The notes beneath the pieces were generated by a model. The model was not told where the DNA came from. It saw nothing but the letters and a program-made list of their open reading frames with translations, and did no database searches. The position numbers and the translations under genes are program-made. From a bacterium (lineage in GTDB: Bacteria > Patescibacteriota > Minisyncoccia > Phycocordibacterales > UBA2100): a stretch of 64,000 nucleotides of DNA. Location of the stretch: NCBI GenBank assembly GCA_016789445.1, contig JAEUQT010000002.1, positions 72,052 through 136,051 on the forward strand. Reading direction: 5' to 3'. This document shows, piece by piece, positions 11,333 through 64,000 of this stretch; positions within the stretch are counted from its first letter, which is position 1; every line of letters begins with the position of its first letter.

Positions 11333-11362
11333 CGCATCAGGTACCTCACGTACACTGACCGC

Positions 11363-18519: not shown

Positions 18520-18540
18520 GATCTAGCGCTCATTTGTTAC

Positions 18541-44165: not shown

Positions 44166-44369
44166 TCACGCCTTGTAATAAAACTCTTCTCTGAAGAGCC
44201 GAGTGATGTAGTTAGGAGAAAGTCCAACTTGAATTGCCGCTCCCTTAGTCGAGTGGCACTCTGTCTCCTTGGAAGTAATCATAAAAAACGCAAGAGAATC
44301 CAGAAAATGCCAACGTTCCTCGTTAATACTCACTATTGTATATATCGACCTCCTAGTTTGGTATTCCAA
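44166..44369 (-). pseudogene. Possible remnant of an AraC/XylS-family HTH regulator
   Basis: The 67-aa ORF ends ...AIQVGLSPNYITRLFREEF, matching a single AraC-type HTH helix signature. It is too short to be functional and lies next to a mobile element. Confidence 0.2.
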
Positions 44370-44387
44370 TAACCTTAATGGCTTTCA

Positions 44388-44460
44388 AATTCGAGATATC
44401 GGCACCGAGATACGAAACATATTGATATCTCGTTCAATATCGGATTAATCTCGGATTGAT
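44388..44460. repeat. ATCTCGGAT-family motif cluster (locus A)
   Basis: TCGAGATATCGGCACCGAGATACG ... GATATCTCG ... AATATCGGATTAATCTCGGATTG. Shares a core with the arrays at 55971-56108 and 60545-60620. Confidence 0.35.
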
Positions 44461-44635
44461 CTAAAGCCGCAATTAATGCCGCTATGGAAAACGAGTGAGT
44501 AAGCGGCATCGCGACTATCAAAGACGAGTTTCTATGCATTCTATTGAGTGAGTGCGACGTTCATTTCATAATTTGACGTCAACTATAAAACGTTGTGCAT
44601 GTAGATACTGGACGTATCCGGCTTACTGAGAGGGG

Positions 44636-46346: not shown

Positions 46347-46482
46347 ACCGTAATCGGGTCAGTCTAAAAGCGTAATCGGGTCATTTGTATACAAATGACC
46401 CGATTAGCTACGCCGAGATTTAGTCCCGAGACACGCATTTTCAATGCTTTCTCGGTTATATCGCGGCGTGAGAGGGCAGCGT

Positions 46483-49400: not shown

Positions 49401-52400
49401 TGATCGCTGTAGTGAGATCACCGGCAACCAGTCCTGATGTGTTTGCCGAAAGAACGCAGGTATTGAGGATCGAGAAGCAACCTCCCGCGAGGTCGATTCC
49501 GTTTGAGAAGGTGCTTGTTCCGGAGCCGTTGAGGTATATGGAGTTCGTGCCAACCTTCAATTGACCTTGCACATTGAGGTTCTGATACAGGGTCGAAGTC
49601 CCGGCTTGGAAGTTCGCAATACTGCCGATTGAAAATACTGAGCCTGGTGAAGTGGTTCCGATGCCCACGTTGCCGCCGAAATACGCATTTCCTGTGGTCG
49701 TTGCGCCACCATTGATGGTGAGTCCTGTCGCCTGGCCGCCTGCACCGATCGTCGACGAAGCATATGCGGTGAGGCCGCCATTGAACTGCGTGAGTGTCGA
49801 AGTCGCATTGCCATTAAGAAGGAACGGATACGCGAACGATGAGCCGCTGCTGAGGCATACGCCACCGACCGCATAACAGCCCGAAGTGATGTTCATGCCT
49901 ACGTTGCTTGTCGAGGTCGCTGAGCCGGAGATGTTGAGGCCGGAGAGGGTGGTAGTGCCGAATCCAGTAGCGGATACAGAGAGGAACTTGGTCGCGGTCG
50001 AGCTCGAAGCAATCTCAAACACCGGATTCGTCTGCCCAGCATCACCCTGCAGTGCGAGCTTTGCCCACGGCGTGGTCGTACCGATACCAACCTTATCGGC
50101 GTTATCCAACAAGAACGACTGCGTGCCATCATTCGCCCAACCGGCCGCGTTGTTGCCGTTGACGGGTGCGATCATGGCACCGGTGAAGTAGGTGATAGCC
50201 GTGTTCCCGCCGTCGACGATTTGGTTTGAGGCGGTCTGTGTGTCGCCGTATACCTCGAAGTAGTCGGTCGTACCGTTTGCTTCGACGATGGTAGTTATCA
50301 CCACATTCACGGTGCTTGCTTCCGCGGTCTCGCTCGGCAATATTGCGTTCGCAGCTGCAACTCCGTTCTTATAGATCATCGCGAATCCATGATCGTCAGC
50401 GCTGAGGGCACCATATTGAAGATTAGCTGTAAGGATGTATTTGCCCGGCACGGTCGGCATGAAGCGGTTGCCGCTAAAGTTGTTATTTGTATCGAAGCTC
50501 TCAACGTCCCAGGTGATAAGCGTAGGGCTCGCGCCGACGTTCGTCTGATCAGCGGTTTTGCTCACATGAAATGACGGCCCCGTCGTCGCGGTCGTCACCC
50601 CCTGCCACGTCCCGCCGGCGTTCTTGAATTCGATGACACCGCCGTTGTCACGGAAGCCATAGCCGTCCGTACCGGTCGTGGTGCCGAAGTTCGTGTAGCG
50701 ATCCGTGCCGTTGAAAAGGGTATCGCCGAAGACGGTGAGTTTTGCATTCGGTGTTGAGGTGCCGAGTCCCATATCGCCATTGGAATTGACGAGCAGACGA
50801 GTGCTTTTCGCGCGATTATCCGAAAGAGTAAATGATCCATTATTGGCAAATGCGAGCCAATCTCCTGCAGTGCCAGTAGTGTCATTGAGTCTCAAAGACG
50901 CATTGTCTCCTTCGATAGCGAGACTTCGCGCGGAACATCCGGTACATGCAACAGGCGTGGTTGTTCCGATGCCGATGTTTCCGTTTGTTGCGATAAACAA
51001 GCTCGACGTACCAATCGCCGTATTCGTGCCGCTGAAGTAGGCGACTTGGCCGGTGGTGCCAGTGAGCGAGGCGCTTCCACCACCGACGCACGTGCCGTTT
51101 ACTGCATAGCAGCCGCTCGTGATGTTCATGCCTACGTTCGAGGTAGAAGTCGCAGAACCGGAAATATTCAAACCAGAAAGAGTGGTGGTGCCGAAACCGG
51201 TACCAGATACCGAGAGGAACTTGGTCGCGGTCGAGCTCGAAGCAATCTCAAACACCGGATTCGTCTGCCCAGCATCACCCTGCAGTGCGAGCTTCGCCCA
51301 CGGCGTGGTCGTGCCGATGCCAACCTTATCCGCATTGTCCAAAAGGAACGACTGCGTACCATCATTTGCCCAGCCTGCGGCGTTGTTGCCGTTCACGGGC
51401 GCGATCATGGCGCCTGAGAAGTTGGTGAGAATCGCTGTGCCGTCGACAACCTCCGATCCTGCGGTGGCGTGGCTGACGTAGATTTCAACGTAGTCGGTCG
51501 AACCGTTCATGTCGATTATCTCGCTTATGGAGCTAGTGAGGCGTTGTGCGGCAGCGACATCGGGATAGTTATAGACCTGTGCGACTACTGCGCCGTTCTT
51601 ATAGATCATGATCGATGCGTTCCCCCCGGCATCGATGGTATTCGCCCACCATGCCTGCGCGCGGATGAGGTATTTGCCTGGCACTGTTGGCGTGAATCGA
51701 TTCGACGCGAAATTGTTGTTAGTGTCGAACGTTTCGGTACTCCAAGTGAGAAGTGTGGCTCCGCCGGCGGCAATCGTCTGATCCGAACCGTTCTTATGCA
51801 CACTGAACGACGGCCCCGTCGTCGCGGTCGTCACCCCCTGCCACGTCCCGCCGGCGTTCTTGAATTCGATGACACCGCCGTTGTCACGGAAGCCGTAACC
51901 GCTTGATCCAGTAGTGGTGCCGAAGTTCGCGTAGCGATCCGTGCCGTTGAAGAGGGTATCGCCGAAGACGGTGAGCGCAGCTATTGGGGTTGTGGTACCG
52001 ATACCGACGAACCCGTTGGTGCCCGGAGAAAGAATCACATCACCGGTGCCGAAGGTGGTGCCAATAGCGACATTGCCGTTGGTGCCATCGTAGAGCGTGA
52101 GGAAGCCGTTCGCGTTTCGAGAGCTATTGTATGCGCGGAGATTTGTGGTGCCACCTGCGCCGATCTCCATGTCGCCCCAAACGTTGAATTTTGCTACGGG
52201 AGTTGTTGTGCCCACACCGACGCGGCCGTTCGTGTCTATGAACAAACTCGACGTACCAATCGCCGTATTCGTGCCGCTGAAGTAGGCGAGCTGACCTTGA
52301 GTACCTGAGAGCGATGCAGAACCACCGCCGATGCAGGTGCCGTTTATGGCGTAGCAGCCACCGGAAAGATTGATACCGCCCGTCGATGAGAAGGTCGAAG

Positions 52401-55400
52401 TGGCAGTCGAGAAGTTGATGCCGTTCGTGTTGCCGATAGAGAAAAGTGAGCCCGGTGTCGAGGTGCTAATACCGACATTTCCGTTACCGCGAACGACGAA
52501 TGTGTTATCGGTCGAGGCGGTGCGGAGGCCGAGGAAGTCATTGCTGGTGCTGCTGTCGAGATCCGTCTCGAACGTGTAGCGATTTGAGCCATCCGATGCG
52601 CCGAAGATAAGACGAGCCTCGTCTGCTCCTTCGGTGCCGCCGATCTCGAGCTTGCCGCTCGGAGATGCGACTCCGATACCGACGTTGCTCGCGACATAGA
52701 GTGAGCCGGTTGTTGTTGCACCGCCGGAGATGGTGAGGCCACCGGTCTGCGTACCGTCACCAATGGTCGACGATGCATACGCCGTGAGTCCGCCGTTGAA
52801 GCCGAGCAGGGTTGAAGTCGCATTCGATGGGAACGGATACGCAAAGTTCTGGTAGTCGGTGCCAGGTGTCGCAACGGAGACGACGCCGTTTGCTGCTTTC
52901 AAAACTCCGCTCAAATTGCCTGAGAGAGTGGTCTGGCCGGATACCACCAGCGCACTTGTCGATGCAACACCGTTAGCTTGTGTGAATGCAGTCGAGCCCA
53001 AAGCAGCAGTCGGCGCACTCACCGATTCCGTGAACGAGCTGAACGTGAAGGTAGAAGCGGCTCCAAGCTGCTCGATATTGATAGTCGCAGTTCCTACGGT
53101 CGAACCTAATGTTCGACGAATGCGGAAGTCAGCCACTTGATTTGTAATACGCACATCAAGAGCAAAATCGTTTCCGACATAGGAACCAGTATCTGAAATC
53201 GGGAGCGCCAATTGCCACGCGCCACTTGTCTGTGCATATTTGAGCGGCAACGCATATTGTTTTGAGACCGAGAAGCTCGATGCAGGCACCGTAATGCTTA
53301 TGTAGAGATTGTGGGCACCATTGGTGATCGTGGTGCTTGCGATACTAATTGTGTCATTGATCGTTGTGGGCACTGCGCGCGTGACGCTGAAGCGCTTCTG
53401 AGCAGATGCCGACGTTTCTGAGAAAAGATAGTCTCTTGCAGTCACATTGCCACTTACGGTTGTTGAACCGAAAAAGGCATTTGTCGAAGATGCATAACTT
53501 GAGGAGAAGAGCGTCGAGGACGCGTTCGCGAAGGTCTGGAGTGCGGTGAAGGTGTTTGCGCTGTACGTCTTCGGGATTGTCGTCGAGGAGTGGGCTAAGT
53601 AGATGGCAGACGTCGTCGAGAAGAAATCACGAGTGGTCTGCCAGTAGTTGGCTGATGTCGTGGAGAATCCGAGACCGAGCGACGACCAGTAATTCGCGCT
53701 GGTCGTCGAGAAGCTGTTCGCGAGATAGTAGCTACCTTCAAGGCCATCAAACGTGCCGGTCCAATCACCGGCAGTGGTTGCGATGTAGTCGGTGCCAGGA
53801 ACCGCCGTCAAAACCGCGCCCGTGCCATTGCCCTTGAGGAGTCCGGTGAGCGTCGTCGAGCCGGTGCCGCCGTTGGGTACGCTGAGCGCCGCACCGAGAT
53901 TCAGTGAGCCGAAGTATCCGACGGTCGAGGATGCATAGGTGCTCGAGAAGAGCGTGGTCGATGCGTTCGAGAATGTTTGTAAGCCGGTATACGTATTGGC
54001 GGTATAGGTCTTCGGGATTGTCGTCGATGAGTGGACGAAGTACGTCGCAGATGTCGTTGAGAAGAAGTTATTGACTGACTTCCAGTAGTCGTTCGAGGTG
54101 GTAGAGAAGGCGAGGCCGATCGAGGAGAAGTACGAGGCTGAGGTAGTCGAGAAGAAGTTGCGCTGGTCCTTCCAGGCGTCGGCGCTGGTCGTTGAGAACG
54201 CATTGCCTTGATTCTGCGCGAGGAAATACGAGGCAGACGTGGTGGAGAAGAAATCACGCTGCGTCTTCCAATAATCAGCACTCGTCGTCGAGAACGAGGT
54301 GTCGGTGAACGTCGGCCATGCCTGACGACAATCTCCTGAGATGCAGAGGGAATTCGTGCTGAGTGCCGTCGTGGATGCGTACGGGAATACGGATGCCGCG
54401 GACGAGGTGGCGGTGAAGCGCGGCGCAGTCACGTTGCCATAGCTCGTCATAGCGCCGCGGAAGAGGGAGTTTCCGGCGATTTCGAGGATAGTTCCTACGG
54501 TAGTCGTCGCACTGCTACCGATGATGACGACATCCGTCGGGTCCGCAGGGTAGATGGCCAAGTCATCCGTCGTAGAAGCAAAGAAGCTCGCACCACCGCC
54601 TCCACCACCGGTGAGGTCGGTGCTCCATGTAAGATTGCCGCTGACCATCTTCAGTACTTGGCCGTTCGAGCCATTGGTAAGCGTCGAGGCGATACCATCG
54701 CTTGTCTGCAGAAGGCCGGTGCCAGTACCGAAGCCGAAGGAGCCGCTCACATACATATTAGTAGAGGTGGCATTGGTGCTGGTTGCGTCAGTCACCTCAA
54801 GTCCGTCGAAGGCCTGTGTGCCTGAGAAGGTGATCCCCGAGAGCGTGGAGCCGGATATGGAGGCACCGGAGATGGAGCCGCCCGTGAACGTCGAATCAGT
54901 GATATCGATATCGTCGAATCCGGCGCCTCCGATGCCGTCGGGGAAGCTGTCGACGATGCTCTCCGCCTGGCGATCGCCCCGGTACTCAGCAAGCTCGATG
55001 CGCCCGGTGAGGTAGTTCTCCATCGCATTGAGACGGCTATCCAACAGCTGCTCGGAAAGGCCCGAAGCAAGCACTCCGCCGGAGCCGACCGTCGGTTGGA
55101 TGTAGTTGGTGATGTTGTTCGTGATCTGGGTTGGGGCAGGTGCCTGAGCAACCGGCTGCGAACCACCGCGAACGTACACAACTGGCATCGGCTGCACGTC
55201 GTCACACCAGCCGGTGATGCTGCAGGCGATTGAAGTAATGCTGGTGTAGCTCGCGCGCGCGATCGATTCGATCGGCGAGAAGAAAGATGCAGCAGCAACC
55301 TGCTCGGCCGCAGAACCACGAAGCATGTTGGCGATCGGAGTGGAAAGCGCCGTAGTGTTTGCGATGAAAAGGAGAAGTACTGCACAGATGGAAGATATCG

Positions 55401-55833
55401 TGATGCGCGTGATCAGCATCGTCTGTGCCTTCTCGCGTGCCGCGTGAGCTTTTTCGGATGCACGCAAGATATGCAGCTGACGAGGTGCTACGTGTACAGG
55501 GGAGAGCGGCTGGAAGTTCTCATCGCGCACGACGACCGGCTCCGCAACACTCTTAAGCTCGCGTGAGAGGTTTTGGTGCCATGCCTCTTTCTTCGCCTCA
55601 TGCGCCTTGATAAAGGGGACCAAGGAATCAGCTTCAACGATCCACGTCTTACCCGAGCGTCGTCCACGAAGTTTTCCTTCGCGACAAAGGCGCGATACAT
55701 AATCCGGCGCGTACCCCAAAACATCTCCGGCTTCGCGTGCCGTCAGGTAGTGAACGCCGTCAATGTACAAGTTATTTTTCACACCGCGAAAGTGACGAAA
55801 TATGTTGCAACTATAACTTTTTTCGTCAGTCAC
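46483..55833 (-). CDS. Giant (3116 aa) membrane-anchored surface repeat protein with N-terminal excisionase-like HTH domain
   Basis: The N-terminus YLTAREAGDVLGYAPDYVSRLCREGKLRGRRSGKTWIVEADSL looks HTH_17/MerR-excisionase-like. It has a single TM helix (LITRITISSICAVLLLFIANTTAL). The huge extracytoplasmic part carries more than 25 FSTTSA-(D/N/S)Y(W/F) repeats, Gly-rich low-complexity tracts and a large internal duplication. The C-terminal tail is acidic and Pro/Glu-rich. Confidence 0.7.
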   Translation of the reverse strand: MTDEKSYSCNIFRHFRGVKNNLYIDGVHYLTAREAGDVLGYAPDYVSRLCREGKLRGRRSGKTWIVEADSLVPFIKAHEAKKEAWHQNLSRELKSVAEPVVVRDENFQPLSPVHVAPRQLHILRASEKAHAAREKAQTMLITRITISSICAVLLLFIANTTALSTPIANMLRGSAAEQVAAASFFSPIESIARASYTSITSIACSITGWCDDVQPMPVVYVRGGSQPVAQAPAPTQITNNITNYIQPTVGSGGVLASGLSEQLLDSRLNAMENYLTGRIELAEYRGDRQAESIVDSFPDGIGGAGFDDIDITDSTFTGGSISGASISGSTLSGITFSGTQAFDGLEVTDATSTNATSTNMYVSGSFGFGTGTGLLQTSDGIASTLTNGSNGQVLKMVSGNLTWSTDLTGGGGGGASFFASTTDDLAIYPADPTDVVIIGSSATTTVGTILEIAGNSLFRGAMTSYGNVTAPRFTATSSAASVFPYASTTALSTNSLCISGDCRQAWPTFTDTSFSTTSADYWKTQRDFFSTTSASYFLAQNQGNAFSTTSADAWKDQRNFFSTTSASYFSSIGLAFSTTSNDYWKSVNNFFSTTSATYFVHSSTTIPKTYTANTYTGLQTFSNASTTLFSSTYASSTVGYFGSLNLGAALSVPNGGTGSTTLTGLLKGNGTGAVLTAVPGTDYIATTAGDWTGTFDGLEGSYYLANSFSTTSANYWSSLGLGFSTTSANYWQTTRDFFSTTSAIYLAHSSTTIPKTYSANTFTALQTFANASSTLFSSSYASSTNAFFGSTTVSGNVTARDYLFSETSASAQKRFSVTRAVPTTINDTISIASTTITNGAHNLYISITVPASSFSVSKQYALPLKYAQTSGAWQLALPISDTGSYVGNDFALDVRITNQVADFRIRRTLGSTVGTATINIEQLGAASTFTFSSFTESVSAPTAALGSTAFTQANGVASTSALVVSGQTTLSGNLSGVLKAANGVVSVATPGTDYQNFAYPFPSNATSTLLGFNGGLTAYASSTIGDGTQTGGLTISGGATTTGSLYVASNVGIGVASPSGKLEIGGTEGADEARLIFGASDGSNRYTFETDLDSSTSNDFLGLRTASTDNTFVVRGNGNVGISTSTPGSLFSIGNTNGINFSTATSTFSSTGGINLSGGCYAINGTCIGGGSASLSGTQGQLAYFSGTNTAIGTSSLFIDTNGRVGVGTTTPVAKFNVWGDMEIGAGGTTNLRAYNSSRNANGFLTLYDGTNGNVAIGTTFGTGDVILSPGTNGFVGIGTTTPIAALTVFGDTLFNGTDRYANFGTTTGSSGYGFRDNGGVIEFKNAGGTWQGVTTATTGPSFSVHKNGSDQTIAAGGATLLTWSTETFDTNNNFASNRFTPTVPGKYLIRAQAWWANTIDAGGNASIMIYKNGAVVAQVYNYPDVAAAQRLTSSISEIIDMNGSTDYVEIYVSHATAGSEVVDGTAILTNFSGAMIAPVNGNNAAGWANDGTQSFLLDNADKVGIGTTTPWAKLALQGDAGQTNPVFEIASSSTATKFLSVSGTGFGTTTLSGLNISGSATSTSNVGMNITSGCYAVNGTCVGGGSASLTGTTGQVAYFSGTNTAIGTSSLFIATNGNIGIGTTTPVACTGCSARSLAIEGDNASLRLNDTTGTAGDWLAFANNGSFTLSDNRAKSTRLLVNSNGDMGLGTSTPNAKLTVFGDTLFNGTDRYTNFGTTTGTDGYGFRDNGGVIEFKNAGGTWQGVTTATTGPSFHVSKTADQTNVGASPTLITWDVESFDTNNNFSGNRFMPTVPGKYILTANLQYGALSADDHGFAMIYKNGVAAANAILPSETAEASTVNVVITTIVEANGTTDYFEVYGDTQTASNQIVDGGNTAITYFTGAMIAPVNGNNAAGWANDGTQSFLLDNADKVGIGTTTPWAKLALQGDAGQTNPVFEIASSSTATKFLSVSATGFGTTTLSGLNISGSATSTSNVGMNITSGCYAVGGVCLSSGSSFAYPFLLNGNATSTLTQFNGGLTAYASSTIGAGGQATGLTINGGATTTGNAYFGGNVGIGTTSPGSVFSIGSIANFQAGTSTLYQNLNVQGQLKVGTNSIYLNGSGTSTFSNGIDLAGGCFSILNTCVLSANTSGLVAGDLTTAINTSVNALQIASSSAKWVSLSNGVADSFGSASIADDSGIDLVNSSGIATSAGMIALVPDAAPSGGSSSSSGGDSIRTFTSNGTFYSGAVGTVQVLVVGGGGGGGGNATASVRGSGGGGAGEYVAISSFNVTPATSYAITVGTGGGSNTDGATTTAFGLTARGGGAGAEPFNNGRPGGSGGGAGDDSSATTGGASTAVSPGVGSSGGNAGSGGSGGGGAGGGGAAGAGGSGGGNGVEAGGAGGTGIANTISGTSVTYSSGGAGGTRSGNNNGTNGATPGSGGRGAGGGASTVVTGGTGADGIVIVRYTTVSGTGASRLISNTFTASSSPSTAKFFFAGTSTAAFTLNTHIAAAVSRDGGTTWSTTTLQALSTLEDGSTLYGDTAVDLSGQPSGTSMKYRILMSPSSPAGIMLRGVSLQWGEVSAQNAGALSVTGSLSAQSLSLTSALGVANGGTGLTSISSGSILFGNDTGSIGTSSSLFWDTTNQRLGIGTTTPTYMLSVSGNGTNAKNRIAVWGRQNTTNGTAAGLSFFNTDGNPSTQKEIAGIDAGRHSNNFGGSLSLFTSDTAGATSTRLFIDSSGNVGIGTTTPLRQLHVSGTNAYVRLDGSANSGMEIYESGARKWIIDNLVSDDRLRFFSDTANEIMSLTQSGNVGVGTTTPVSTLSVQGSLCVRSTGSCGTTAGTIYATTATISDIDLAENYRAIDSTLLTGEIVSLLENSTSTIRRAKHGEEGLGVLSTKPGLLLGQEIKDGRAVALKGRVPLKVNMEGGPIAVGDRLTISSVPGIGTKATTSSYTVARALEATSVSGEIEVFVENEYTLVIEEKNALRDLLNATSTATSTPVFANIFARMTNWLADAQNGITEIFTKTLRAENVYADTVNANKLCLEDLCVTKAELQQLLNQSGATPASTPEEPPDEPQSETPPEETGSEEPAPEPEDSPETEAPEDAPEESETPPNDENPEPESTPEPSPEEV
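49886..52351. repeat. Intragenic tandem duplication, two copies of about 1233 bp inside the giant gene
   Basis: The DNA at 49975-50200 matches 51208-51433 almost exactly, as does 50581-50760 vs 51811-51990, giving a period of 1233 bp. The protein segment ...NGNNAAGWANDGTQSFLLDNADKVGIGTTTPWAKLALQGDAGQTNPVFEIASSSTATKFLSVS... occurs twice. Confidence 0.6.
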
Positions 55834-55970
55834 GCTTACGCGAAAGGGTGTGGATTCTGTGAATAACTGTGCAAAGTATTTTCTGGATCATGTATTCGTG
55901 CAGTCGTGTATAAAATCTTTGCATGCACGTGCTGTAGAGCGGAATCCGGAGCTTAGGAAGCAATCTTTGT

Positions 55971-56108
55971 GAGATCTCGGTAGCGTCTCGGATATTACGT
56001 AGTAGCGTCTAACATATACATCTCGATTTAACGAGCTAAATAAATTAACGGTATCTCGTTTAATCTCGGAATATCTCGGATCCAAATCTCGGATGCATCT
56101 CGGATTGG
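55971..56108. repeat. Array of ATCTCGGAT-family motifs (locus B), including 4-5 head-to-tail copies at 56051-56108
   Basis: GAGATCTCGGTAGCGTCTCGGATATT ... CATCTCGATT ... GGTATCTCGTTTAATCTCGGAATATCTCGGATCCAAATCTCGGATGCATCTCGGATTGG. It sits in the divergent promoter region between the giant gene and gatB. Confidence 0.5.
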
Positions 56109-56344
56109 CGCTTTCGTCGGTTGTTCTTCAGGCATTTTCATTTGTTGGTGTGGTTTCTCGGACTTTAGGTGTGATCCTTGCGGCCCTTTTTCGTTGAGTC
56201 TGTTCTTTTCGGGTGGGACTTGCCATCGATTCGTTCTCGTGGCGTATCATAAACGGCACTGAAATGAACTCAAGAATTCGGTAAAGTCATCCGTACTAGG
56301 GAAGGTTCCTGCAAAGGCGGCGATTCCTTATATACTTAAGAACT

Positions 56345-57781
56345 ATGGCCTACACACCGACGATCGGAATGGAAGTACACGCAGAGCTGAAAACCGCGAC
56401 AAAGATGTTCTGCAATTCGAAGAACGATGCGCATGAGATGCGTCCGAATGTAAACATCTGTCCGGTGTGTCTCGCGCATCCGGGAACGCTTCCCGTCATC
56501 AATAAGGAAGCGGTGAAGCATGTGCTTCGTGTGGGCATCGCACTTGGCAGCGAGCTCGCTGATTACACCGAATTCGATCGCAAGAATTATTTCTATCCTG
56601 ATCTTCCGAAGGGATACCAGATAAGCCAATATGAATTTCCATTGGTTAGCGGCGGTACGCTCGCAGGCGTACAGATTACACGCATACACCTTGAAGAAGA
56701 CACGGCAAGCTCGGTGCACGACAGCCAAACGGGCGCTACACTCATAGACTTTAACCGCTCCAGCATGCCGCTCATGGAGTTGGTCACCGAGCCGGTTATC
56801 CATAGCGCGGAGGAAGCAGGGAAGTTCGGTCGTGAGCTGCAGCTCTTGCTGCGCTATCTCGGTGCATCTGATGCGGATATGGAGCAAGGACAGATGCGTC
56901 TCGAAGCGAACATTTCTCTTTCTGATACCGACAAGCTCGGTACGAAAGTGGAAGTAAAAAACATCAATTCATTCCGCGCGATGGAACGCGCAGTTGCATA
57001 CGAGATCAAGCGCCAGACCGAGCTTCTATCCAAAGGAGAGAAGGTGATACAAGAGACGCGTGGTTGGGATGATGTAAAACAGCAGACGTTCTCGCAGCGC
57101 GTAAAAGAAGTCGCCGCTGATTACCGCTACTTCCCGGATCCTGATCTCCCATCACTCAAGCTTTCAGAGATACCGGAATTCTCACGAGAGAATCTCGCAC
57201 AGACATTGCCTGAATTGCCCGACGCACGCCGAGCACGCTACGCGTCGTGGGGTATTAAGCCTGCAGATGCGGAGCAGTTCGTACAGTATCCGCGCATCGG
57301 ATCCTTCTTTGATGCGGTGGCAGCCACCAAAACAGGGGATGCAGCTTTCGCACAGCGTGCCGCCAACTATATTGCCAACGACTTAGTGAAGATAATCCGA
57401 GATACTGATTCGCGAGATTCAGAATTAAGCGCCGAGATACCGGTTTCTGTAGAGAATTTTGCCAAAATAATCGATCTCATCGGTGCAGGTAAGATATCTT
57501 CCCGTGTCGCCAAGGACCTCCTGCTTATGGTTATCGCTGAAAGGCGCGATCCTGAGTCCCTTGCCACAGAGAAGGGGCTCTTCCAGACCAGTTCTGCTGC
57601 TGATCTCGGGCCTACGATTGATGCAATTCTCACCGAGCATACATCCGTGGTTGCAGATTACAAGGGAGGAAAGGAAGCGGCACTGCAATTCCTCTTCGGA
57701 CAGGCAATGAAGGTTCTGAAGGGTGCTGCTGAGCCAGCTACGTTGCGTCAGGCGCTTATTGACGCCATCGCTAAGAAATAA
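56345..57781 (+). CDS. gatB: Asp-tRNA(Asn)/Glu-tRNA(Gln) amidotransferase subunit B
   Basis: 478 aa. The N-terminus YTPTIGMEVHAELKTATKMFC, the C4 Zn motif NVNICPVCLAHPGTLP, the GatB core and the C-terminal YqeY-like domain are all present. Confidence 0.9.
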   Translation: MAYTPTIGMEVHAELKTATKMFCNSKNDAHEMRPNVNICPVCLAHPGTLPVINKEAVKHVLRVGIALGSELADYTEFDRKNYFYPDLPKGYQISQYEFPLVSGGTLAGVQITRIHLEEDTASSVHDSQTGATLIDFNRSSMPLMELVTEPVIHSAEEAGKFGRELQLLLRYLGASDADMEQGQMRLEANISLSDTDKLGTKVEVKNINSFRAMERAVAYEIKRQTELLSKGEKVIQETRGWDDVKQQTFSQRVKEVAADYRYFPDPDLPSLKLSEIPEFSRENLAQTLPELPDARRARYASWGIKPADAEQFVQYPRIGSFFDAVAATKTGDAAFAQRAANYIANDLVKIIRDTDSRDSELSAEIPVSVENFAKIIDLIGAGKISSRVAKDLLLMVIAERRDPESLATEKGLFQTSSAADLGPTIDAILTEHTSVVADYKGGKEAALQFLFGQAMKVLKGAAEPATLRQALIDAIAKK

Positions 57782-57801: not shown

Positions 57802-58962
57802 TTGAAACACAAGGGGTTTTCCCCGATGTCTACTCTTGCAAACAGGCGAGAGGAGTATAATAGCTGCATGGCACAGGAGATTAATCTCGGAGGAACGATA
57901 TACATCTCGTCTAAGCATGCAGCCGAGAAGACCGGCTATACGCAGGACTACATCGGCCAGCTTGCCCGCGGCGGCTCCATCGAGGCGAAGCGTGTATCAG
58001 GTATGTGGTACATCCTTGAGGAATCCCTTCGGGCGTATAAGGAGAAAGCAGACCAGTTCGTCCCCACGCCTCCTGAGGGATTCACGAAGTCACCCGAAGC
58101 GGAAGTGGCAGTATCATTCGATGGTAAAGACTACATCTCGGCAAACCGAGCAGCGAAGATTACAGGATATAACCAGGACTATATCGGTCAGCTTGCCCGC
58201 AGTAATCAGATCCTCTCGCGGCAGGTCGGTAAGCGCTGGTATGTCGATCGAGAATCGCTCCTGAAGCATAAAGAGGAGAAGGACGCGCTTCTTGCTGCGG
58301 TACAGGTCGAATCTGTCGGTCTTGCGAAGCCAGAAGACCTCCCGCCGATCCAGGAGCCGGAACCTGCTCCCGTAGAGGAGGTGGTCGTCGAACAGGAGGT
58401 AACCCATTTCAGCTACGTTAAGGAAGAGGAAGCGCCTCTTATCCCGGAGTTTGAGACCGAGGAGCCAGAACCCATGCCGGAATTCCCGCGACGCAAAGTA
58501 GCTGAACCGGTCTTTCAGGAATATCGTGCCCCCGAGCCCGAACTGGCTAGATTTGAAGCCGTAGAATCGATAGAGGAAGCTCCGGTAGTCGGTGAGGAAA
58601 TCGCCCCGCAGACGCCACAAGAGCCCGTCATGGAGGAGGTCGTCATCCCGATCCGAGTCACGGACGAAGAGGCGATAGAGGAGGCGTATATCGAGGAGGA
58701 TGCGCCGGTACGTAAGGCGCGAAAGCCGGTAGGCGCCTTTAATTTCATCGCAATCTCGTCTCTCACGGTAGTTGCTGCTCTCGGGACGCTCGCCTACATC
58801 GGAAGCTCGCTTGGATTCCTCGATTTCGGTAGCGTCATGCCGCAGGGAGATGGCTCTCAGAATGCTTCTGCGGCCAATACTGTTGTAGAGAGCAATGCTG
58901 ACAAGGCAGGAGAGACGATCCGTGGATTCTTCTCGAAAGAGATAACGTATAAGCGTCAGTAA
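57802..58962 (+). CDS. Membrane protein with two tandem N-terminal excisionase-like HTH modules, acidic Pro/Glu linker and C-terminal TM helix
   Basis: The two modules are YISSKHAAEKTGYTQDYIGQLARGGSIEAKRVSGMWYILEESL and YISANRAAKITGYNQDYIGQLARSNQILSRQVGKRWYVDRESL. The TM helix is FNFIAISSLTVVAALGTLAYIGSSLGF. The start could also be the internal Met at MSTLANR. Confidence 0.5.
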   Translation: MKHKGFSPMSTLANRREEYNSCMAQEINLGGTIYISSKHAAEKTGYTQDYIGQLARGGSIEAKRVSGMWYILEESLRAYKEKADQFVPTPPEGFTKSPEAEVAVSFDGKDYISANRAAKITGYNQDYIGQLARSNQILSRQVGKRWYVDRESLLKHKEEKDALLAAVQVESVGLAKPEDLPPIQEPEPAPVEEVVVEQEVTHFSYVKEEEAPLIPEFETEEPEPMPEFPRRKVAEPVFQEYRAPEPELARFEAVESIEEAPVVGEEIAPQTPQEPVMEEVVIPIRVTDEEAIEEAYIEEDAPVRKARKPVGAFNFIAISSLTVVAALGTLAYIGSSLGFLDFGSVMPQGDGSQNASAANTVVESNADKAGETIRGFFSKEITYKRQ

Positions 58963-59069: not shown

Positions 59070-59780
59070 TTGCGAGCCTGCATGAAAAACGCAACCGACA
59101 TAGGTTCGTACATTCCGGCACGTGATGCCGCTCTTCGTGCGCGCCTGCATCCGGATTACATCGCACGCCTCGCGCGTCAGTCGAAGATCAAGGCAAAACG
59201 TGTCGGTCGCAAGTGGTATGTCGACGAATCCGCCCTCGAGAAATTCCTGAAAAGCCACTCGGAAGGGAAAGAAGAACGTCGCGAGAAATTGCGCGAGAAG
59301 CACAAGAAAGAATATCTTGAGCACGCACAGCCGCTTGCGCGCGTAGACGATACGATCGCGGATAACGTATCTCCACGCACACAGCATGCAGTCGTGACCA
59401 CGGTGAAGCACGCAAACCTCTGGGCGACTCCGGGCCTCAATGCACATGCGGTGACGTATGCGATGCACCCCGGAATCGACCTCTTCCATCGAGTCGTCGC
59501 TCTCGTTACGGCATTCGTTCTCGTCTTCGGCGCTTACGGACTCTTCGATAGGGAATTCGGCGCTGCAGCTGTTGACGCTCTTGCGTATTCTGCAAGCGGT
59601 ATCGTCGCATTTGCGGCTGTAACTATCGGTTTTTCGCCTGATTGTGCATCGGGAACCCAACGCATGGCGGCCGCAGCGCATCTCGCATTCCAGAATGCGC
59701 TCACCTCGATCGATAACGCGATGCCATCGGGACTTCCCGATACGTCACTCACCCCGCTCAGCGCAGCGTGCGCACACTGA
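59070..59780 (+). CDS. Membrane protein with N-terminal excisionase-like HTH module and two TM helices
   Basis: The HTH module is YIPARDAALRARLHPDYIARLARQSKIKAKRVGRKWYVDESALEKFL. The TM helices are VVALVTAFVLVFGAYGLF and GIVAFAAVTIGF. 236 aa. Confidence 0.45.
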   Translation: MRACMKNATDIGSYIPARDAALRARLHPDYIARLARQSKIKAKRVGRKWYVDESALEKFLKSHSEGKEERREKLREKHKKEYLEHAQPLARVDDTIADNVSPRTQHAVVTTVKHANLWATPGLNAHAVTYAMHPGIDLFHRVVALVTAFVLVFGAYGLFDREFGAAAVDALAYSASGIVAFAAVTIGFSPDCASGTQRMAAAAHLAFQNALTSIDNAMPSGLPDTSLTPLSAACAH

Positions 59781-59781: not shown

Positions 59782-60546
59782 ATGACCTTCAAATTTCGCG
59801 CAAAAATGACTTCAGAGATACGTAACGCATCACACACGTCACTTATCGCATTTGTTATATCTCTCATTTCTTTTGTGGCATTTTGCTCGTTTCCATACGT
59901 ATCTCATGCGCAACAAGCGAAAATTCCTGCAGCATCAATCACTTCGATAGTGCGTTCGGTCGATACTCCTGGTGCGATCGATGTGAAAGGAAAGGCGCAG
60001 CCACGTACGACCATCAATGTCGAGATCATTTCCGATGATGTGGGTCCACTCTTGCGGCAGCAAACGGTCTCGAATGAGGCAGGAGACTGGTATCTCACTA
60101 TAGGAGATAGCTCATTCAAAGACGGTGCGTATACGTTACGTGCGATCGTGCAGGATCAAGGTGGTCTACTCGGTCCCGTAACCGAAGTACGCGGATATAA
60201 GATACAGCCGAAGCCTCTCTTAGATGTAAACGGCTACCAGTTCGGATGGCTCGATGCCTTCATAGGAGCCCTCTTCATACTTTTCCTCGTTGCCGCAGTC
60301 GGCAGTTGGTACTACGAGCACCGTCGTCGTATCCATGAAGAGCAGCTTCTTATGGCAGAGCGCGACATCCATAGCATGTCGCATAACCTCATGGAAGAAG
60401 TCGAGCGTCTCGACCACCTTATTCGAGACTCGAAGGGTATGGATCCGCATGTTGCAGCCGAAGCAGAGTATTTGCTGAAGAGTCAGCAGAATAAGCTCGA
60501 GAAGATGAAGGGGATGCTCGCCATCGAGCCCTCAAAGGCTATATAG
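59782..60546 (+). CDS. Bitopic membrane/secreted hypothetical protein
   Basis: Start MTFKFRAKMTSEI, 1 bp after the previous stop. It has an N-terminal signal/TM segment (SLIAFVISLISFVAFCSFPYVSHAQQ), a beta-rich middle, a second TM segment (FIGALFILFLVAAVGSWYY) and a C-terminal coiled-coil-like tail. Confidence 0.45.
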   Translation: MTFKFRAKMTSEIRNASHTSLIAFVISLISFVAFCSFPYVSHAQQAKIPAASITSIVRSVDTPGAIDVKGKAQPRTTINVEIISDDVGPLLRQQTVSNEAGDWYLTIGDSSFKDGAYTLRAIVQDQGGLLGPVTEVRGYKIQPKPLLDVNGYQFGWLDAFIGALFILFLVAAVGSWYYEHRRRIHEEQLLMAERDIHSMSHNLMEEVERLDHLIRDSKGMDPHVAAEAEYLLKSQQNKLEKMKGMLAIEPSKAI

Positions 60547-60620
60547 CCGAGATGTATCTCAATATCCGAGATAGAGCTTAAATAAAGGATGGAATAATAA
60601 CTCGGTTTGCCGAGAATACG
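60545..60620. repeat. ATCTCGGAT-family motif cluster (locus C)
   Basis: AGCCGAGATGTATCTCAATATCCGAGATAGAG ... CTCGGTTTGCCGAGAATACG (mostly in reverse-complement orientation, CCGAGAT). It is upstream of the second giant paralog. Confidence 0.35.
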
Positions 60621-60886
60621 TAGGATTTACCGCCAAGAAGTCCTTATACAGCAATCTCCATATGGATGAATGTCTGCAACCGCCTGCGATGGGCAGTTTT
60701 TATCTTCTCGGAATACTGAGAGCGGCAAACCGATGTCGCAGGGCCGATATCGAACATCCTATAACGAGTTTGTATCGTGTTCACGAGGTATTCATCTTTG
60801 TCCACAGTCTCAATACTTTTGAACCCGATATCGTCGGAAAAGCAAGTAAAATACTACTTAAATCGCATTGACGATATGGGACGTCT

Positions 60887-63800: not shown

Positions 63801-64000
63801 GTAACTTCTTCTCGACAACTTCGGCAGCGTACTTCTCGTCCGTCGGCCTCGCGTTCTCGACCACGTCAAACGATTACTGGGCATCGGTACGTAATTTCTT
63901 CTCGACGACCTCAGCGTCGTACTTCCTCTCACAGAACCAGGGTGCCGCGTTCTCATCGACCTCGGCAAACTACTTCATCCATTCGTCGACGACCGTGCCG
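60887..64000 (+). CDS. Second giant surface repeat protein (paralog of 46483-55833), 5' part only; continues beyond window
   Basis: ATG at 60887; I translated the frame through to 64000 by hand and found no stop (1038 codons). N-terminal HTH-like module (LVPSRESARRFNITNDYIGRLCKQGKVSGSLISGSWYVNEESLRDFL). TM helix (GLAVMFAVIVVVGGL). Then GFDDIDITNSTYTGGTITG..., TGTFDGLEGSYYLANSFSTTSASYF and many FSTTSA-Y(W/F) repeats, as in the minus-strand giant protein. It is not in the ORF track because it has no stop in the window. Confidence 0.6.
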   Translation, partial: MTEIIHHGMRLVPSRESARRFNITNDYIGRLCKQGKVSGSLISGSWYVNEESLRDFLLKTNREKYERREALREQRAHAYREAQARLLGDAIPAKRAVIAEKKVAPLPPRPLRIHPAPRRVPKTFTIFAQRGLAVMFAVIVVVGGLRFSDASVFQVAREVLPAAAAISGRNDVFANASQSAIAKFLGANRDNESYWIWYETSGATYDQPEISSGLAGNDSVIGRVIDAITPGSISEAILNARLAALESRLMALISIVPPTNSVAPVYHYYVDNSSGIGGSGFDDIDITNSTYTGGTITGATITGGSVTATEFDGVLPVANGGTGTSTYAVGDILYADSPSTLGRLAQGTNGQVLKVVGGNLVWSQDIAGGGGSGAFATTSDDLAIYVADPSDVVIIGSNATSTTGNILEIAGNTLMRGALTAYNTITGPIFTATSTTATSTMPRLNITGSLGIGSDYITDISGDGLSVQSGALALDRTGDWTGTFDGLEGSYYLANSFSTTSASYFISQQNLSGFSTTSADYWKTQRDFFATTSVEYWKSVSNFFSTTSAAYFLSENQEEAFSTTSAAYFLSQQNVSGFSTTSADFWQTQRNFFSTTSTDYWKSVNNFFSTTSADFWKTANNFFSTSSAQYFVNSSTTIPKTYTANTFTALQTFGNASSSILSADTFCLSNDCRTSWPSAGSSFAYPFPNDATSTTITFNNGIVSVGSTTINGNATTTGMQSVGSLYINGERFTDLTGSGLLNTAGVLSLDTSGNWTGTFDGQEGSYYLANSFSTTSASYFSSIGLAWSTTSANYYLSQNGALGFSTTSNDYWMSQRNFFSTTSANYWQTTRDFFSTTSAAYFLGQNQGAAFSTTSANYWESQQTARTADDLSNNSIEDLSDVAAMTENYGDLLYWNGSSWADIATSSLGLVTSSELGAYLSLASWYATTTDGLDEGSANLYFTNARVQSYLDTVGKGYFFSTTSADAWKDQRNFFSTTSAAYFSSVGLAFSTTSNDYWASVRNFFSTTSASYFLSQNQGAAFSSTSANYFIHSSTTVP

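Follow-up and report, generated by a model that had tools for sequence, protein, structure and literature searches.

A repeated ATCTCGG motif near gatB belongs to a conserved set of probable protein-binding sites in a group of uncultivated bacteria

The 64,000-nucleotide stretch analyzed here (the window) comes from a Patescibacteria (Kaiserbacteria-like) bacterium, and its right-hand part carries gatB together with several genes whose products begin with a winged helix-turn-helix (wHTH) domain of the excisionase/BldC type (Pfam HTH_17). The genes and promoter elements that concern us are as follows.

44166..44369, − strand: decayed HTH_17-type pseudogene downstream of cluster A (below), reading ...STKGAAIQVGLSPNYITRLFRE..., then an in-frame stop, then ...MAGMWI; Pfam gives no hit, and the assignment rests only on inspection of the translation against the N-termini of the other family members.
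45777..46346: gene for a 189-aa wHTH protein.
46483..55782, − strand: giant gene 1, encoding an N-terminal HTH_17 domain, a TM helix, and about 3000 aa of extracellular repeats, transcribed divergently from gatB; the N-terminal 100 aa alone score 27.7 bits against the Pfam cutoff of 27, and the start is placed by the gene calls in relatives.
55847..55858, − strand: upstream box GGTGTGGATTCT, a DnaA-box-like promoter element shared by the HTH_17 genes, which reads ATCCACA on the strand of giant gene 1.
56345..57781, + strand: gatB (Pfam GatB_N, E = 4.8e-105).
57856..57912, + strand: leaderless promoter and 5′ end of the double-HTH_17 gene, with TATAAT at 57856-61, ATG at 57868, and sites ATCTCGGAG (57884-92) and ATCTCGTCT (57904-12) in codons 6-15.
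57868..58962, + strand: gene for the candidate binder, a 364-aa protein with two HTH_17 winged-helix domains, an acidic linker, one TM helix, and a short tail (39.5 bits against the cutoff of 27).
59082..59780, + strand: gene for a 232-aa paralogue with an N-terminal HTH_17 domain (30.7 bits) and hydrophobic C-terminal segments.
60798..60806, + strand: the same box (TTGTCCACA) upstream of giant gene 2, followed 41 nt later by TAAAAT.
60887..64000, + strand: giant gene 2, with an HTH_17 N-terminus that is weak in Pfam (17.7 bits), which runs off the end of the window and is called in near-identical contigs.

Between giant gene 1 and gatB, eight same-strand ATCTCG(G) sites lie at 55974-56105, with start-to-start spacings of 11, 35, 33, 10, 10, 13, and 11 bp. 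Together with smaller clusters and single sites elsewhere, they can be described as follows.

55974..55993, + strand: distal pair of sites, ATCTCGGTA (55974-82) and GTCTCGGAT (55985-93), 11 bp apart.
56020..56037, no single strand: convergent pair ATCTCGATT (56020-28) and TAACGAGCT (56029-37, the one inverted partner), the decayed form of the palindrome TCTCGG-N3/4-CCGAGA seen in more distant relatives.
56037..56050, no strand: AT-rich spacer TAAATAAATTAACG between the inverted pair and the tandem array.
56053..56105, + strand: tandem array of five sites, ATCTCGTTT (56053-61), ATCTCGGAA (56063-71), and ATCTCGGAT at 56073-81, 56086-94, and 56097-105, spaced 10, 10, 13, and 11 bp; on the strand of giant gene 1 they read CCGAGAT.
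56155..56163, + strand: weak outlying site TTCTCGGAC (10.0 bits with the weight matrix described below).
44389..44456, both strands: cluster A, a paralogous copy of the composite element, with two sites on the − strand followed by three on the + strand; read on the − strand it gives three CCGAGAT-type sites (spaced 11 and 10 bp), an AT-rich spacer, then two inverted sites (11.0-15.3 bits).
46411..46419, − strand: single strong site ATCTCGGCG (13.7 bits) in the gap between the stop of giant gene 1 and the start of the 189-aa gene.
57395..57438, + strand: sites inside the gatB coding sequence, ATCCGAGAT (codons I351-R352-D353), CGCGAGAT (R357-D358), and GCCGAGAT (A-E-I).
60545..60616, − strand: cluster C, with sites at 60545-53, 60564-72, and 60608-16, which read CCGAGAT on the + strand, the strand of giant gene 2, and lie upstream of its box and −10 element.

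The observation made in the sequence-only reading, that an ATCTCGG-type motif forms arrays in three intergenic regions of this window, is confirmed, although the tandem part has five copies, not four. The 9-mer ATCTCGGAT occurs 7 times in 64 kb against 1.25 expected, and 0 of 100 shuffles reach 7; five of these copies are intergenic in the three clusters, and only one lies in the first 39 kb. CCGAGAT occurs 33 times against 14.7 expected. The main region holds 8 TCTCG cores in 150 bp, whereas no other 150-bp stretch holds more than 4; clusters A and C are real but weak when counted alone. A weight matrix trained only on sites from relatives places 13 of its 32 hits of at least 11 bits in the 3.9 kb of intergenic DNA, a density ratio of 10.5 over coding DNA (Fisher p = 1.8e-8). 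All of these hits fall in 4 of the 11 intergenic gaps of 50 bp or more, all beside HTH_17 genes, the 189-aa wHTH gene, or gatB, and in none of the gaps of the 39-kb upstream gene cluster.

The array is identical in 7 strains of 99.5-99.9% identity that differ elsewhere in the same spacer, and it is therefore not a slippage-variable tract. Orthologous spacers in relatives with 97, 90, 86, and 85% GatB identity keep the same order of inverted pair, AT-rich spacer, and tandem sites upstream of the giant gene, while the surrounding spacer is barely alignable, and the spacing is identical in the closest relative. In the locus of a relative designated L008 (loci of relatives are numbered in this way below), the distal pair is present with the same spacing, the tandem spacing is identical, and a TCTCGG lies at a distance similar to that of the weak outlying site; L011, L012, and L138 have 3-5 tandem copies, three of them at 10 and 10 bp in L138. 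The AT-rich spacer is conserved as TAAATAA.TAAC in L008, L011, L012, and L138, and the upstream box in L008, L012, and L138. Sites equivalent to cluster C occur in L008, L138, L136, and L011. A relative with 76% GatB identity has a perfect palindrome plus one site at the same place as the convergent pair, where L136 has TCTCGGACGTCCGAGA. Tandem arrays of 3 or more sites are, however, limited to this lineage, L049 (see below), and single short runs in L136 and L169, and a histogram of same-strand spacings over all loci is dominated by conserved coding sites (7-8, 15, and 20 bp) and cannot be used as a test of helical phasing.

We next asked whether the motif is associated with particular genes. 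In 73 non-identical loci of the double-HTH_17 gene, a blind 6-mer scan of positions −150 to −1 returned only three signals: TATACT, TCCACA, and TCTCGG/CCGAGA. The last has 72 occurrences against 17.4 expected, in 43 loci (p = 1e-22), and the sites concentrate between −60 and +20, often as TCTCGG-N12-CCGAGA or overlapping the −10 hexamer. In these 73 loci the −10 hexamer starts at −12 or −13 from the ATG in most cases, and the upstream box lies at −60 to −50 in 51 of them. At the 5′ end of this gene, ATCTCGG is invariant in 7 orthologues, including at synonymous positions. A motif-only scan of 185,579 genomes for three copies of the motif returned almost only microsatellites and high-GC coding repeats, with chance hits more numerous than we had estimated, but at least one CPR hit stood out from this noise. 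In this locus (L049), from a Nomurabacteria genome in another CPR family, three CCGAGAT at 10-bp spacing are followed by a TTTTCCACA box, TATAAT, and the ATG of a gene of more than 1620 aa with an HTH_17 domain, a TM helix, and GIGTTSP repeats. The same pattern in viral contigs returned 103 stretches, none of which has an HTH_17-type N-terminus nearby, and those inspected look like repeats with a 12-bp period; there is no phage link.

The element is tied more tightly to gatB than to the giant gene. Upstream noncoding TCTCGG density is 7.8 per kb for gatB, 5.0 for HTH_17-type genes, and 2.0 for other genes, although TCTCGG is a fairly common hexamer in these genomes, the last value being itself about four times the roughly 0.5 per kb that we estimate for an unbiased hexamer. 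Many loci have TCTCGG-N3-CCGAGA upstream of gatB, and in many relatives the element lies between secA and gatB with no divergent HTH_17 gene. Within the gatB coding sequence, R352 is encoded by CGA in 51/54 and R357 in 47/48 distinct gatB sequences, which preserves the motif; no other of 135 conserved degenerate columns exceeds 0.9 for its commonest codon. Arg in the RD dipeptides of this loop is CGA in 75/76 cases, against 12/42 elsewhere in gatB, and codons 350-353 read ATA ATC CGA GAT. This codon analysis led us to reject the reading of the internal site as a coding coincidence.

The candidate binder was examined by sequence and by structure prediction. Pfam finds two HTH_17 stretches in the 364-aa protein, there is a weak match to TIGR01764 (“excise”), and the family alignment shows an invariant helix, QDYIGQLAR, and a conserved hydrophobic TM segment with an extracellular tail. 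HTH_17 scores above the Pfam cutoff in three paralogues of the window, and every HTH_17 protein here carries a hydrophobic membrane segment after the DNA-binding domain. The model (pLDDT 85) shows two wHTH domains as two β-β-α-α-β-β-α units, and a Foldseek search matched them to TraN, a double-wHTH autorepressor (the top hit, probability 0.99), Pukovnik Xis (TM 0.69, rmsd 1.6 Å), BldC (TM 0.66), TorI, the pSK1 Par centromere-binding domain, and RacA. The Foldseek E-values are weak (4e-3 to 0.7), and a phmmer sequence search of the PDB found nothing.

The interpretation offered in the sequence-only reading, cooperative transcription-factor sites or iterons with possible autoregulation by the HTH module or, alternatively, REP-like elements, is partly supported. 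The sites behave as a conserved, sequence-specific cis-element, not as chance or slippage, and they are tied to genes carrying the HTH module, which belongs to a fold class known to bind direct repeats one helical turn apart (PMC7498355, PMC5859096). The REP alternative fails, and iterons in the replication sense have no support. The placement of cluster A at the promoter of a secreted protein or IS gene was also not supported: cluster A is not the promoter of either, but lies upstream of the decayed HTH_17 pseudogene. The 189-aa wHTH protein, proposed as a partner in DNA-binding assays, has only subthreshold HTH hits and was not seen in the gene lists of the corresponding loci of relatives, and it is a poor candidate binder. 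The anchoring of the element to gatB across the clade, including the codon-constrained sites inside the gene, had been missed.

Taken together, these observations are best read, with moderate confidence, as a cluster of double-stranded DNA operator sites (core ATCTCGG, full 9-mer ATCTCGGAT) belonging to a cis-regulatory or architectural system conserved across Paceibacteria-type Patescibacteria and centered on gatB and on genes whose products begin with a cytoplasmic HTH_17 winged helix followed by a membrane anchor. The occurrence of sites in both orientations and inside gatB fits a sequence-specific reader. The most likely readers are the HTH_17 domains, first that of the conserved 364-aa protein, whose recognition helix is invariant, and then the N-terminal domains of the giant surface proteins and of the 232-aa paralogue. 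In this view, protomers, or the two domains of one protein, would bind head-to-tail on one face of the helix at sites 10-13 bp apart, cooperatively, as for Xis, Apl, Cox, and BldC. At the leaderless promoter of the double-wHTH gene the sites lie between the upstream box and the −10 element and at +14, so occupancy would repress that gene (autoregulation), whereas the array in this window, about 110-310 bp upstream of the start codons of giant gene 1 and gatB, would act as a high-avidity nucleation or looping site together with the sites inside gatB and at the downstream promoter. What the analysis establishes is the motif, its conservation and positions, the synonymous constraint inside gatB, and the fold class of the candidate binder; that a protein binds the sites (cooperatively and with DNA bending, as in the RDF/BldC-type arrays compared below), which protein it is, and whether and in which direction it regulates are inferred. 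The link between motif and HTH_17 rests on co-location only, and because the recognition helix is invariant, no protein–DNA covariation can be read. In addition, the main array does not overlap any recognizable core promoter: a sigma-70 promoter and terminator scan of the spacer gave counts at chance level, with nothing overlapping the array, and promoters placed there by eye are not evidence.

A bolder reading, which we consider possible but unlikely, is that in these ultra-small bacteria the giant surface proteins and the double-winged-helix membrane protein reach through the membrane and hold a specific stretch of the chromosome, the gatB region, marked by ATCTCGG sites in its spacers, its promoters, and even its coding sequence. 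Such a link between envelope and chromosome could act as a transmembrane switch coupling the state of the cell surface or host attachment to transcription, or as a centromere-like anchor for the nucleoid.

Of the alternative explanations, that of a chromosome landmark or tether survives best, although it remains doubtful. Here the binder would be the same, but the sites, spread over about 5 kb around gatB and including those inside the gene, would form a centromere-like cluster by which membrane-anchored HTH_17 proteins attach this part of the chromosome to the envelope, for DNA positioning and not transcription control. The membrane segments of the HTH_17 proteins, the fold matches to pSK1 Par and RacA, the absence of a core promoter over the main array, and the parallel with RocS, RacA, and Par, MerR-type wHTH proteins linked to the membrane or the cell pole (PMC11500499), are consistent with this notion. 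Sites kept inside a coding sequence by synonymous constraint are also more usual for chromosome-organization sites than for operators. On the other hand, the concentration of sites at −60 to +20 of a promoter in the 73 loci, often overlapping the −10 element, is classic operator placement, no partner ATPase or coiled-coil domain is evident, and clustering at a single locus is inferred from only about 20 kb per genome.

An RNA-level element is likewise unlikely, whether as hairpins (AUCUCGG-loop-CCGAGAU) that terminate, attenuate, or stabilize the secA-gatB message or as repeated single-stranded sites for an RNA-binding protein in a gatB leader. In many relatives TCTCGG-N3-CCGAGA follows the secA stop within a few bases, some copies have stems extended to 9-14 bp by differing, complementary flanks and are followed by T-rich tails, which looks like a hairpin or terminator function, a third site 26 nt downstream could pair alternatively with the middle site, and the constrained sites inside gatB are transcribed. 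In this window, however, the palindrome has decayed to a 4-5 bp stem while the direct repeats have multiplied, and the region does not fold better than shuffled sequence on either strand (z = +1.8 and +0.3). Rfam 15 gives no hit at the gathering threshold in the window and none at E ≤ 1 in 55700-56400. Sites also lie upstream of the −10 elements of leaderless genes and upstream of the promoter box in L049, where transcription is not expected, and the same word is conserved in both orientations and in unrelated contexts. An sRNA sponge (CsrA-like GGA repeats) was rejected on the same grounds of folding, Rfam, and orientation.

REP-like elements mobilized by the neighboring RAYT-like (Y1) transposase are largely refuted. 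A Y1_Tnp gene (29.8 bits; weak match to the NCBIfam REP-associated tyrosine transposase model) does lie about 150 bp from cluster A, Y1_Tnp genes lie between gatB and the HTH_17 gene in L135 and L136, and some motif copies form hairpins. REP units, however, are imperfect palindromes of about 20-40 nt, whereas the unit here is a 9-mer that is not self-complementary, arranged in direct arrays, with palindromic pairs only in some distant copies, and the Y1_Tnp gene is flanked by its own, different hairpins, TATGGAC-N7-GTCCATA at 44637-57 and 45383-403, with 0 expected by chance. REPs are dispersed in many extragenic copies at positions not conserved between species, whereas in the 64 kb and the loci examined the clusters are few, their positions are conserved down to 60-65% GatB identity, and the motif is embedded in a coding sequence.

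A replication origin, an iteron array, or a DNA-uptake sequence is very improbable: although the direct repeats adjoin an AT-rich stretch (of only 14 bp), a DnaA-box-like word recurs near HTH_17 promoters, CPR bacteria are thought to take up DNA, and uptake sequences can form terminator pairs and occur inside genes, no rep, dnaA, or parB gene is present in the annotated ORFs of the window, DnaA-box-like words are scattered (13 observed against 9.9 expected), GC skew shows no origin-type switch (its turn near 60 kb probably reflects C-rich coding strands in the two giant genes), iterons are typically 17-22 bp, and the 9-mer is clustered at about 0.1 per kb where uptake sequences are dispersed at roughly 1 per kb.

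We are aware of no published work on gene regulation in Patescibacteria/CPR, and targeted literature searches found nothing linking HTH_17 to CPR or describing their promoters. The present analysis provides a cis-element supported by comparative evidence, a promoter architecture (box, sites, −10 element, leaderless start), and a candidate reader amenable to study without a culture. It links the enigmatic giant surface proteins of these epibionts to a DNA-binding module, and the maintenance of the motif inside the essential gene gatB by synonymous-codon selection is a clear example of dual coding. If the readers really are membrane-anchored, this would be a new way of coupling the cell envelope to the chromosome in bacteria with minimal genomes.

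The arrangement is reminiscent of the operators of recombination directionality factors (RDFs) and excisionases (lambda Xis, Pukovnik Xis, P2 Cox, 186 Apl), which are short direct repeats about one helical turn apart bound head-to-tail by proteins of the same small winged-helix fold as the candidate reader; some RDFs, such as Apl, also act as transcription regulators at arrays of 7 operators (PMC7498355). No integrase was found among the window ORFs annotated with Pfam, no att site or mobile element is present, and the locus is syntenic chromosomal DNA across the clade, so this is not a recombination system. The candidate readers are also large membrane-anchored proteins, not free proteins of about 60-80 aa, and inverted copies and copies inside a coding sequence occur.

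BldC of Streptomyces is a chromosomal transcription regulator of the same fold class that binds variable numbers of direct repeats in different promoters as head-to-tail multimers (PMC5859096), which the variable number of 1 to 5 tandem sites among relatives mirrors. BldC, however, is a 68-aa soluble protein that recognizes AT-rich AATT-N4-C repeats about 9 bp apart, whereas here the motif is ATCTCGGAT at 10-13 bp spacing and the domain is fused, singly or in tandem, to transmembrane proteins. TraN of plasmid pIP501, the best structural match, carries two excisionase-like wHTH motifs in one polypeptide that contact adjacent DNA, and it binds and represses its own promoter (PMC10877727), as is proposed here for the sites at −60 to +20 of the 364-aa gene. 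TraN is a cytosolic monomer of a conjugative plasmid that binds a single 34-bp site, whereas the protein here is chromosomal, conserved across a phylum-level lineage, and membrane-anchored, and its presumed sites form arrays.

The MerR-type wHTH DNA tethers (RacA and its ram sites, RocS, and pSK1 Par and its centromere) share an N-terminal wHTH plus a membrane or pole attachment (PMC11500499). These proteins bind multiple clustered sites, but they use a coiled coil with an amphipathic helix or DivIVA and not an integral TM helix with an extracellular domain. Membrane-bound one-component regulators of the ToxR and CadC type use an OmpR-type winged helix in place of HTH_17, and none is known to have an extracellular part of thousands of residues, but their topology matches: a cytoplasmic N-terminal DNA-binding domain, a single TM helix, and an extracytoplasmic domain, with binding to direct repeats near promoters.

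The sites lie in and around the following features, in window coordinates:

46483-55782, - strand: a giant gene (giant gene 1)
55783-56344: the 562-bp spacer that separates giant gene 1 from gatB
55974, 55985, 56020, 56053, 56063, 56073, 56086 and 56097: starts of eight same-strand copies of ATCTCG(G) within the spacer
56029-56037: one inverted partner
56037-56050: a 14-bp AT-rich stretch
56345-57781, + strand: gatB

The last five of the eight copies are tandem, at 10, 10, 13, and 11 bp, with conserved cores and spacers that differ. The exact 9-mer ATCTCGGAT occurs 7 times in the window against 1.25 expected, CCGAGAT occurs 33 times against 14.7 expected, and the densest 150-bp window holds 8 TCTCG cores, whereas no other holds more than 4. 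The observation made in the sequence-only reading therefore holds, and the two other clusters that it named also exist, although by raw count they are no denser than several coding windows. A position weight matrix trained only on sites from relatives gives 32 hits of at least 11 bits, 13 of which lie in the 3.9 kb of intergenic DNA (density ratio of 10.5; Fisher p = 1.8e-8); these hits are confined to four gaps, at 43814-44669, 46347-46482, 55783-56344, and 60547-60886. The array is identical in seven near-identical strains (99.5-99.9% identity), whose only differences in the 511-bp spacer, the length of a T-run at 56184-56189 (5 or 6) and one A/C SNP at 56250, both lie outside the array. The array is therefore not a slippage-prone or phase-variable tract.

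The best named GatB relatives are Candidatus Kaiserbacteria, Paceibacterota, or Patescibacteria MAGs. Positions 1-39 kb encode glycosyltransferases, methyltransferases, epimerases, a Wzm/Wzt-type ABC transporter, and a Wzy_C ligase, followed by SecA. Within this glycosylation cluster, a low-GC island at 16000-19000 (0.41-0.46, against about 0.52-0.58 elsewhere) covers the Wzt-type ABC ATPase and TylF-like methyltransferase genes and may reflect horizontal acquisition. No integrase, rep, dnaA, or parB gene was found among the annotated ORFs, and the window contains no tRNA genes and no Rfam hits.

Around the motif clusters lie four genes whose products start with a Pfam HTH_17 domain (the excisionase/MerR-like type) followed by a hydrophobic segment:

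Giant protein 1: about 3100 aa; the N-terminal 100 aa score 27.7 bits against a cutoff of 27
A 364-aa protein: two HTH_17 domains, 39.5 bits
A 232-aa protein: 30.7 bits
Giant protein 2: runs off the window; 17.7 bits, below the cutoff

Giant protein 1 contains long, near-identical internal duplications (for example, the stretch containing NGNNAAGWANDGTQSFLLDNADKVGIGTTTPWAKLALQGDAGQTNPVFEIASSSTATKFLSVS occurs twice) and a weak Peptidase_G2 (intramolecular chaperone) match near its C-terminus. Independent metagenome assemblies of this strain all break at the same two points inside the giant genes, 54265 and 63108, as expected for repeats. Cluster A, one of the two smaller site clusters, lies just upstream of a short ORF (44166-44369, - strand) that, judged by eye, is a decayed copy of the same N-terminal module with an in-frame stop, although Pfam does not detect it. 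Further features of the intervening DNA are as follows:

44595-45323: a RAYT-like Y1 transposase gene
44637-44657 and 45383-45424: hairpins, TATGGAC-N7-GTCCATA, flanking the transposase gene, with a degenerate second copy on the 3' side
46351-46406: three copies of TAATCGGGTCA, two of which form a perfect 34-bp palindrome (46373-46406) followed on the - strand by CGCTTTT
55786-55830, - strand: the block TGACGAAAAAAGTTATAGTTGCAACATATTTCGTCA, with 8-bp inverted arms around GTTGCAAC, just upstream of the giant gene 1 start

The palindrome lies between the stop of giant gene 1 and the start of a gene for a 189-aa wHTH protein, and could be a terminator for the giant gene, an operator for the 189-aa protein, or both. 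In L135, a locus from a relative, secA is directly followed by gatB (7291-11440), whereas in the window (39761-56345) about 14 kb lie between them: a 499-aa secreted protein gene, the HTH_17 pseudogene, the RAYT-like gene, the 189-aa gene, and giant gene 1 on the opposite strand. This difference implies an insertion or inversion that carried a copy of the site cluster with it. Y1_Tnp genes also lie between gatB and the HTH_17 gene in L135 and in L136 (a relative with 76% GatB identity), and in L135 a different 19-bp perfect hairpin lies upstream of the gene, which suggests a long-standing, possibly domesticated, association with the locus.

Contigs carrying GatB at 97% (L008), 90% (L011), 86% (L138), and 85% (L012) identity keep the divergent arrangement of giant gene and gatB. 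Their spacers keep the same order of elements, a convergent pair, TAAATAA.TAAC, and then three to five tandem sites, with spacing identical in L008, whereas the DNA between the array and either gene is hardly alignable even at 97% GatB identity. The best-conserved part of the spacer in L008, L012, L138, and L136 is the block at 55786-55830, which is probably the core promoter or the 5' leader of the giant gene. L136 has a perfect palindrome, TCTCGGACGTCCGAGA, an AT-rich spacer, and a single ATCTCGGAT at the same place as the array. In many more distant relatives the element reads ATCTCGG-N3-CCGAGAT, about 20 bp, then TCTCGG(AT), and lies 120-300 bp upstream of gatB, sometimes with a giant HTH_17 gene on the other side and sometimes directly after secA. 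The array in the window is therefore a lineage-specific expansion of an old element tied to gatB. True tandem runs of three or more sites occur in this lineage and in L049, a Candidatus Nomurabacteria locus, with single short runs in L136 and L169 (another of the loci compared). Long perfect hairpins unrelated to the ATCTCGG motif lie in the same spacers of relatives, GTCGTAAGGCTTAG...CTAAGCCTTACGAC in L138 (2925-2965) and AGCAAGGCTAAACCTCGCA-TG-TGCGAGGTTTAGCCTTGCT in L135 (12020-12070), and are possibly genuine REP-like elements or terminators.

The 364-aa protein belongs to a large family (561 hits), none with a functional name. Its two wHTH domains are very well conserved, with an invariant helix, QDYIGQLAR, and are followed by an acidic linker, one TM helix, and a short tail ending in FSKELxYxR. 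From 80 loci encoding family members (L140-L219), we compared the -150 to -1 region of the 73 non-identical loci with the rest of those loci. The top 6-mers fall into three groups: TATACT (62 observed against 2.4 expected), TCCACA (47 against 5.1), and TCTCGG/CCGAGA (72 against 17.4, in 43 loci, p = 1e-22). The -10 hexamer, TATA(C/A)T, starts 12-13 nt before the ATG (57856-57870 in the window), which leaves no room for a Shine-Dalgarno sequence, and the gene is thus probably leaderless throughout the clade. A DnaA-box-like word, (T)TATCCACA(G), lies at -60 to -50 from the ATG, about 41 nt upstream of the -10 hexamer, in 51 of the 73 loci; it is too far upstream to be a -35 element. The same word occurs upstream of both giant genes (55847-55858, - strand, and 60798-60806, + strand) and of the L049 giant gene (about 3090). 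The TCTCGG sites fill the interval from -60 to +20, often forming TCTCGG-N12-CCGAGA or overlapping the -10 hexamer (CCGAGATATAAT). One site lies in codons 6-8, where ATCTCGG is invariant, including at synonymous positions, in seven orthologues.

Non-coding upstream DNA holds 7.8 TCTCGG per kb before gatB, 5.0 before HTH_17-type genes, and 2.0 before other genes; for genes with at least 2 sites, the comparison of HTH_17-type with other genes gives Fisher p = 0.002. An independent check came from a motif-only scan of 185,579 genomes, which was otherwise uninformative. Its one CPR hit, L049 (42% GC), has three CCGAGAT at 10-bp spacing, followed by TTTTCCACA, TATAAT, and the ATG of a gene of more than 1620 aa with an HTH_17 domain, a TM helix, and GIGTTSP repeats. 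In giant gene 1, giant gene 2, and L049, the sites read CCGAGAT on the strand of the gene and lie upstream of the box.

A site scoring 17 bits at 57393, inside gatB, recurs at the same place in the gatB of every relative. This site could be taken for a coding coincidence, but analysis of codon usage in 54 distinct gatB sequences (60-100% identity, median 65%) reversed that view. Arg352 is CGA in 51 of 54 sequences and Arg357 is CGA in 47 of 48, whereas 16 other conserved Arg columns have commonest codons at only 28-78% (CGC in all but two); of 135 conserved four- to six-fold degenerate columns, only these two exceed 0.9. Arg in the RD dipeptides of the loop is CGA in 75 of 76 cases, against 12 of 42 elsewhere in gatB (p = 3e-17) and 114 of 732 in other long ORFs. 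Codons 350-353 read ATA ATC CGA GAT in most sequences, which is the full 9-mer ATCCGAGAT, and codons 357-358 read CGA GAT. This is selection at the nucleic-acid level, in a variable loop of an essential enzyme.

An AlphaFold2 model of residues 1-145 of the 364-aa protein (mean pLDDT 85) shows two predicted beta-beta-alpha-alpha-beta-beta-alpha winged-helix units joined by a disordered linker. A Foldseek search of the PDB with this model matches TraN of pIP501, a two-wHTH protein (probability 0.99, E = 4e-3), and, per domain, Pukovnik Xis (TM 0.69, rmsd 1.6 A), BldC bound to DNA (TM 0.66), the pSK1 Par centromere-binding domain, RacA, TorI, and GlnR. The E-values are weak and a sequence search of the PDB finds nothing; the fold class is therefore supported, but close kinship is not. 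Within this fold class, recombination directionality factors (RDFs) bind head-to-tail to direct repeats one helical turn apart (PMC7498355), BldC binds variable numbers of direct repeats as head-to-tail multimers (PMC5859096), TraN binds its own promoter as a monomer with two wHTH motifs (PMC10877727), and RocS, RacA, and pSK1 Par are MerR-type wHTH proteins attached to the membrane or the cell pole (PMC11500499).

The most likely interpretation, which we consider somewhat more probable than not, is that the sites are operators on double-stranded DNA read by HTH_17 domains. The main candidate reader is the conserved double-wHTH protein encoded next to gatB; the N-termini of the giant proteins and the 232-aa protein share the DY(I/V)xxLxR helix and are further candidates. 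In this view, occupancy of -60 to +20 at the leaderless promoter would block RNA polymerase, giving autoregulation. The array itself lies about 190-320 bp upstream of the start codon of giant gene 1 and about 240-370 bp upstream of the gatB ATG, separated from both by non-conserved DNA, and a high-avidity nucleation, bending, or looping site fits it better than a simple roadblock does. The motif, its conservation, its placement, the codon constraint, and the fold class rest directly on the analysis, whereas the occurrence of binding, the identity of the protein that binds, and the sign of regulation are inferences. The sequence-only reading, which proposed cooperative transcription-factor sites or iterons with possible autoregulation, or alternatively REP-like elements, is thus supported only in part.

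Of the alternatives, a chromosome tether or centromere-like cluster, which shares the binder with the operator model, survives best but is unlikely; it is favored by the membrane anchors, the intragenic sites, and the Par and RacA fold matches, whereas the operator-like placement of sites at promoters counts against it. A role as an RNA hairpin or leader is slightly more doubtful. Some palindromic copies directly after the secA stop have extended, covarying stems and T-rich tails, consistent with such a role; in the window, however, the palindrome has decayed while the direct repeats multiplied, folding is no better than that of shuffled sequence, Rfam gives no match, and sites also lie upstream of -10 elements. 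REP/RAYT elements are very unlikely, as the RAYT-like gene has its own hairpins on both flanks and the motif is positionally conserved and partly intragenic. An origin, iterons, or an uptake sequence is equally improbable, with no rep or dnaA gene among the annotated ORFs, no DnaA-box cluster, no origin-type skew switch, and only a low, clustered motif density.

The interest of these sites lies in a first testable cis-regulatory module for this lineage, in the dual-coded sites in gatB, and in the possibility of a physical link between envelope and chromosome. Targeted literature searches found nothing on HTH_17 in the Candidate Phyla Radiation or on promoters of Patescibacteria. As inferred here, the system works like an RDF/BldC/TraN operator system, but it is not a member of any of those families: no integrase was found among the annotated ORFs and there is no mobile element, there is no detectable sequence similarity to the solved proteins, and the predicted DNA-binding domains are fused to integral membrane proteins, two of them giant surface proteins.
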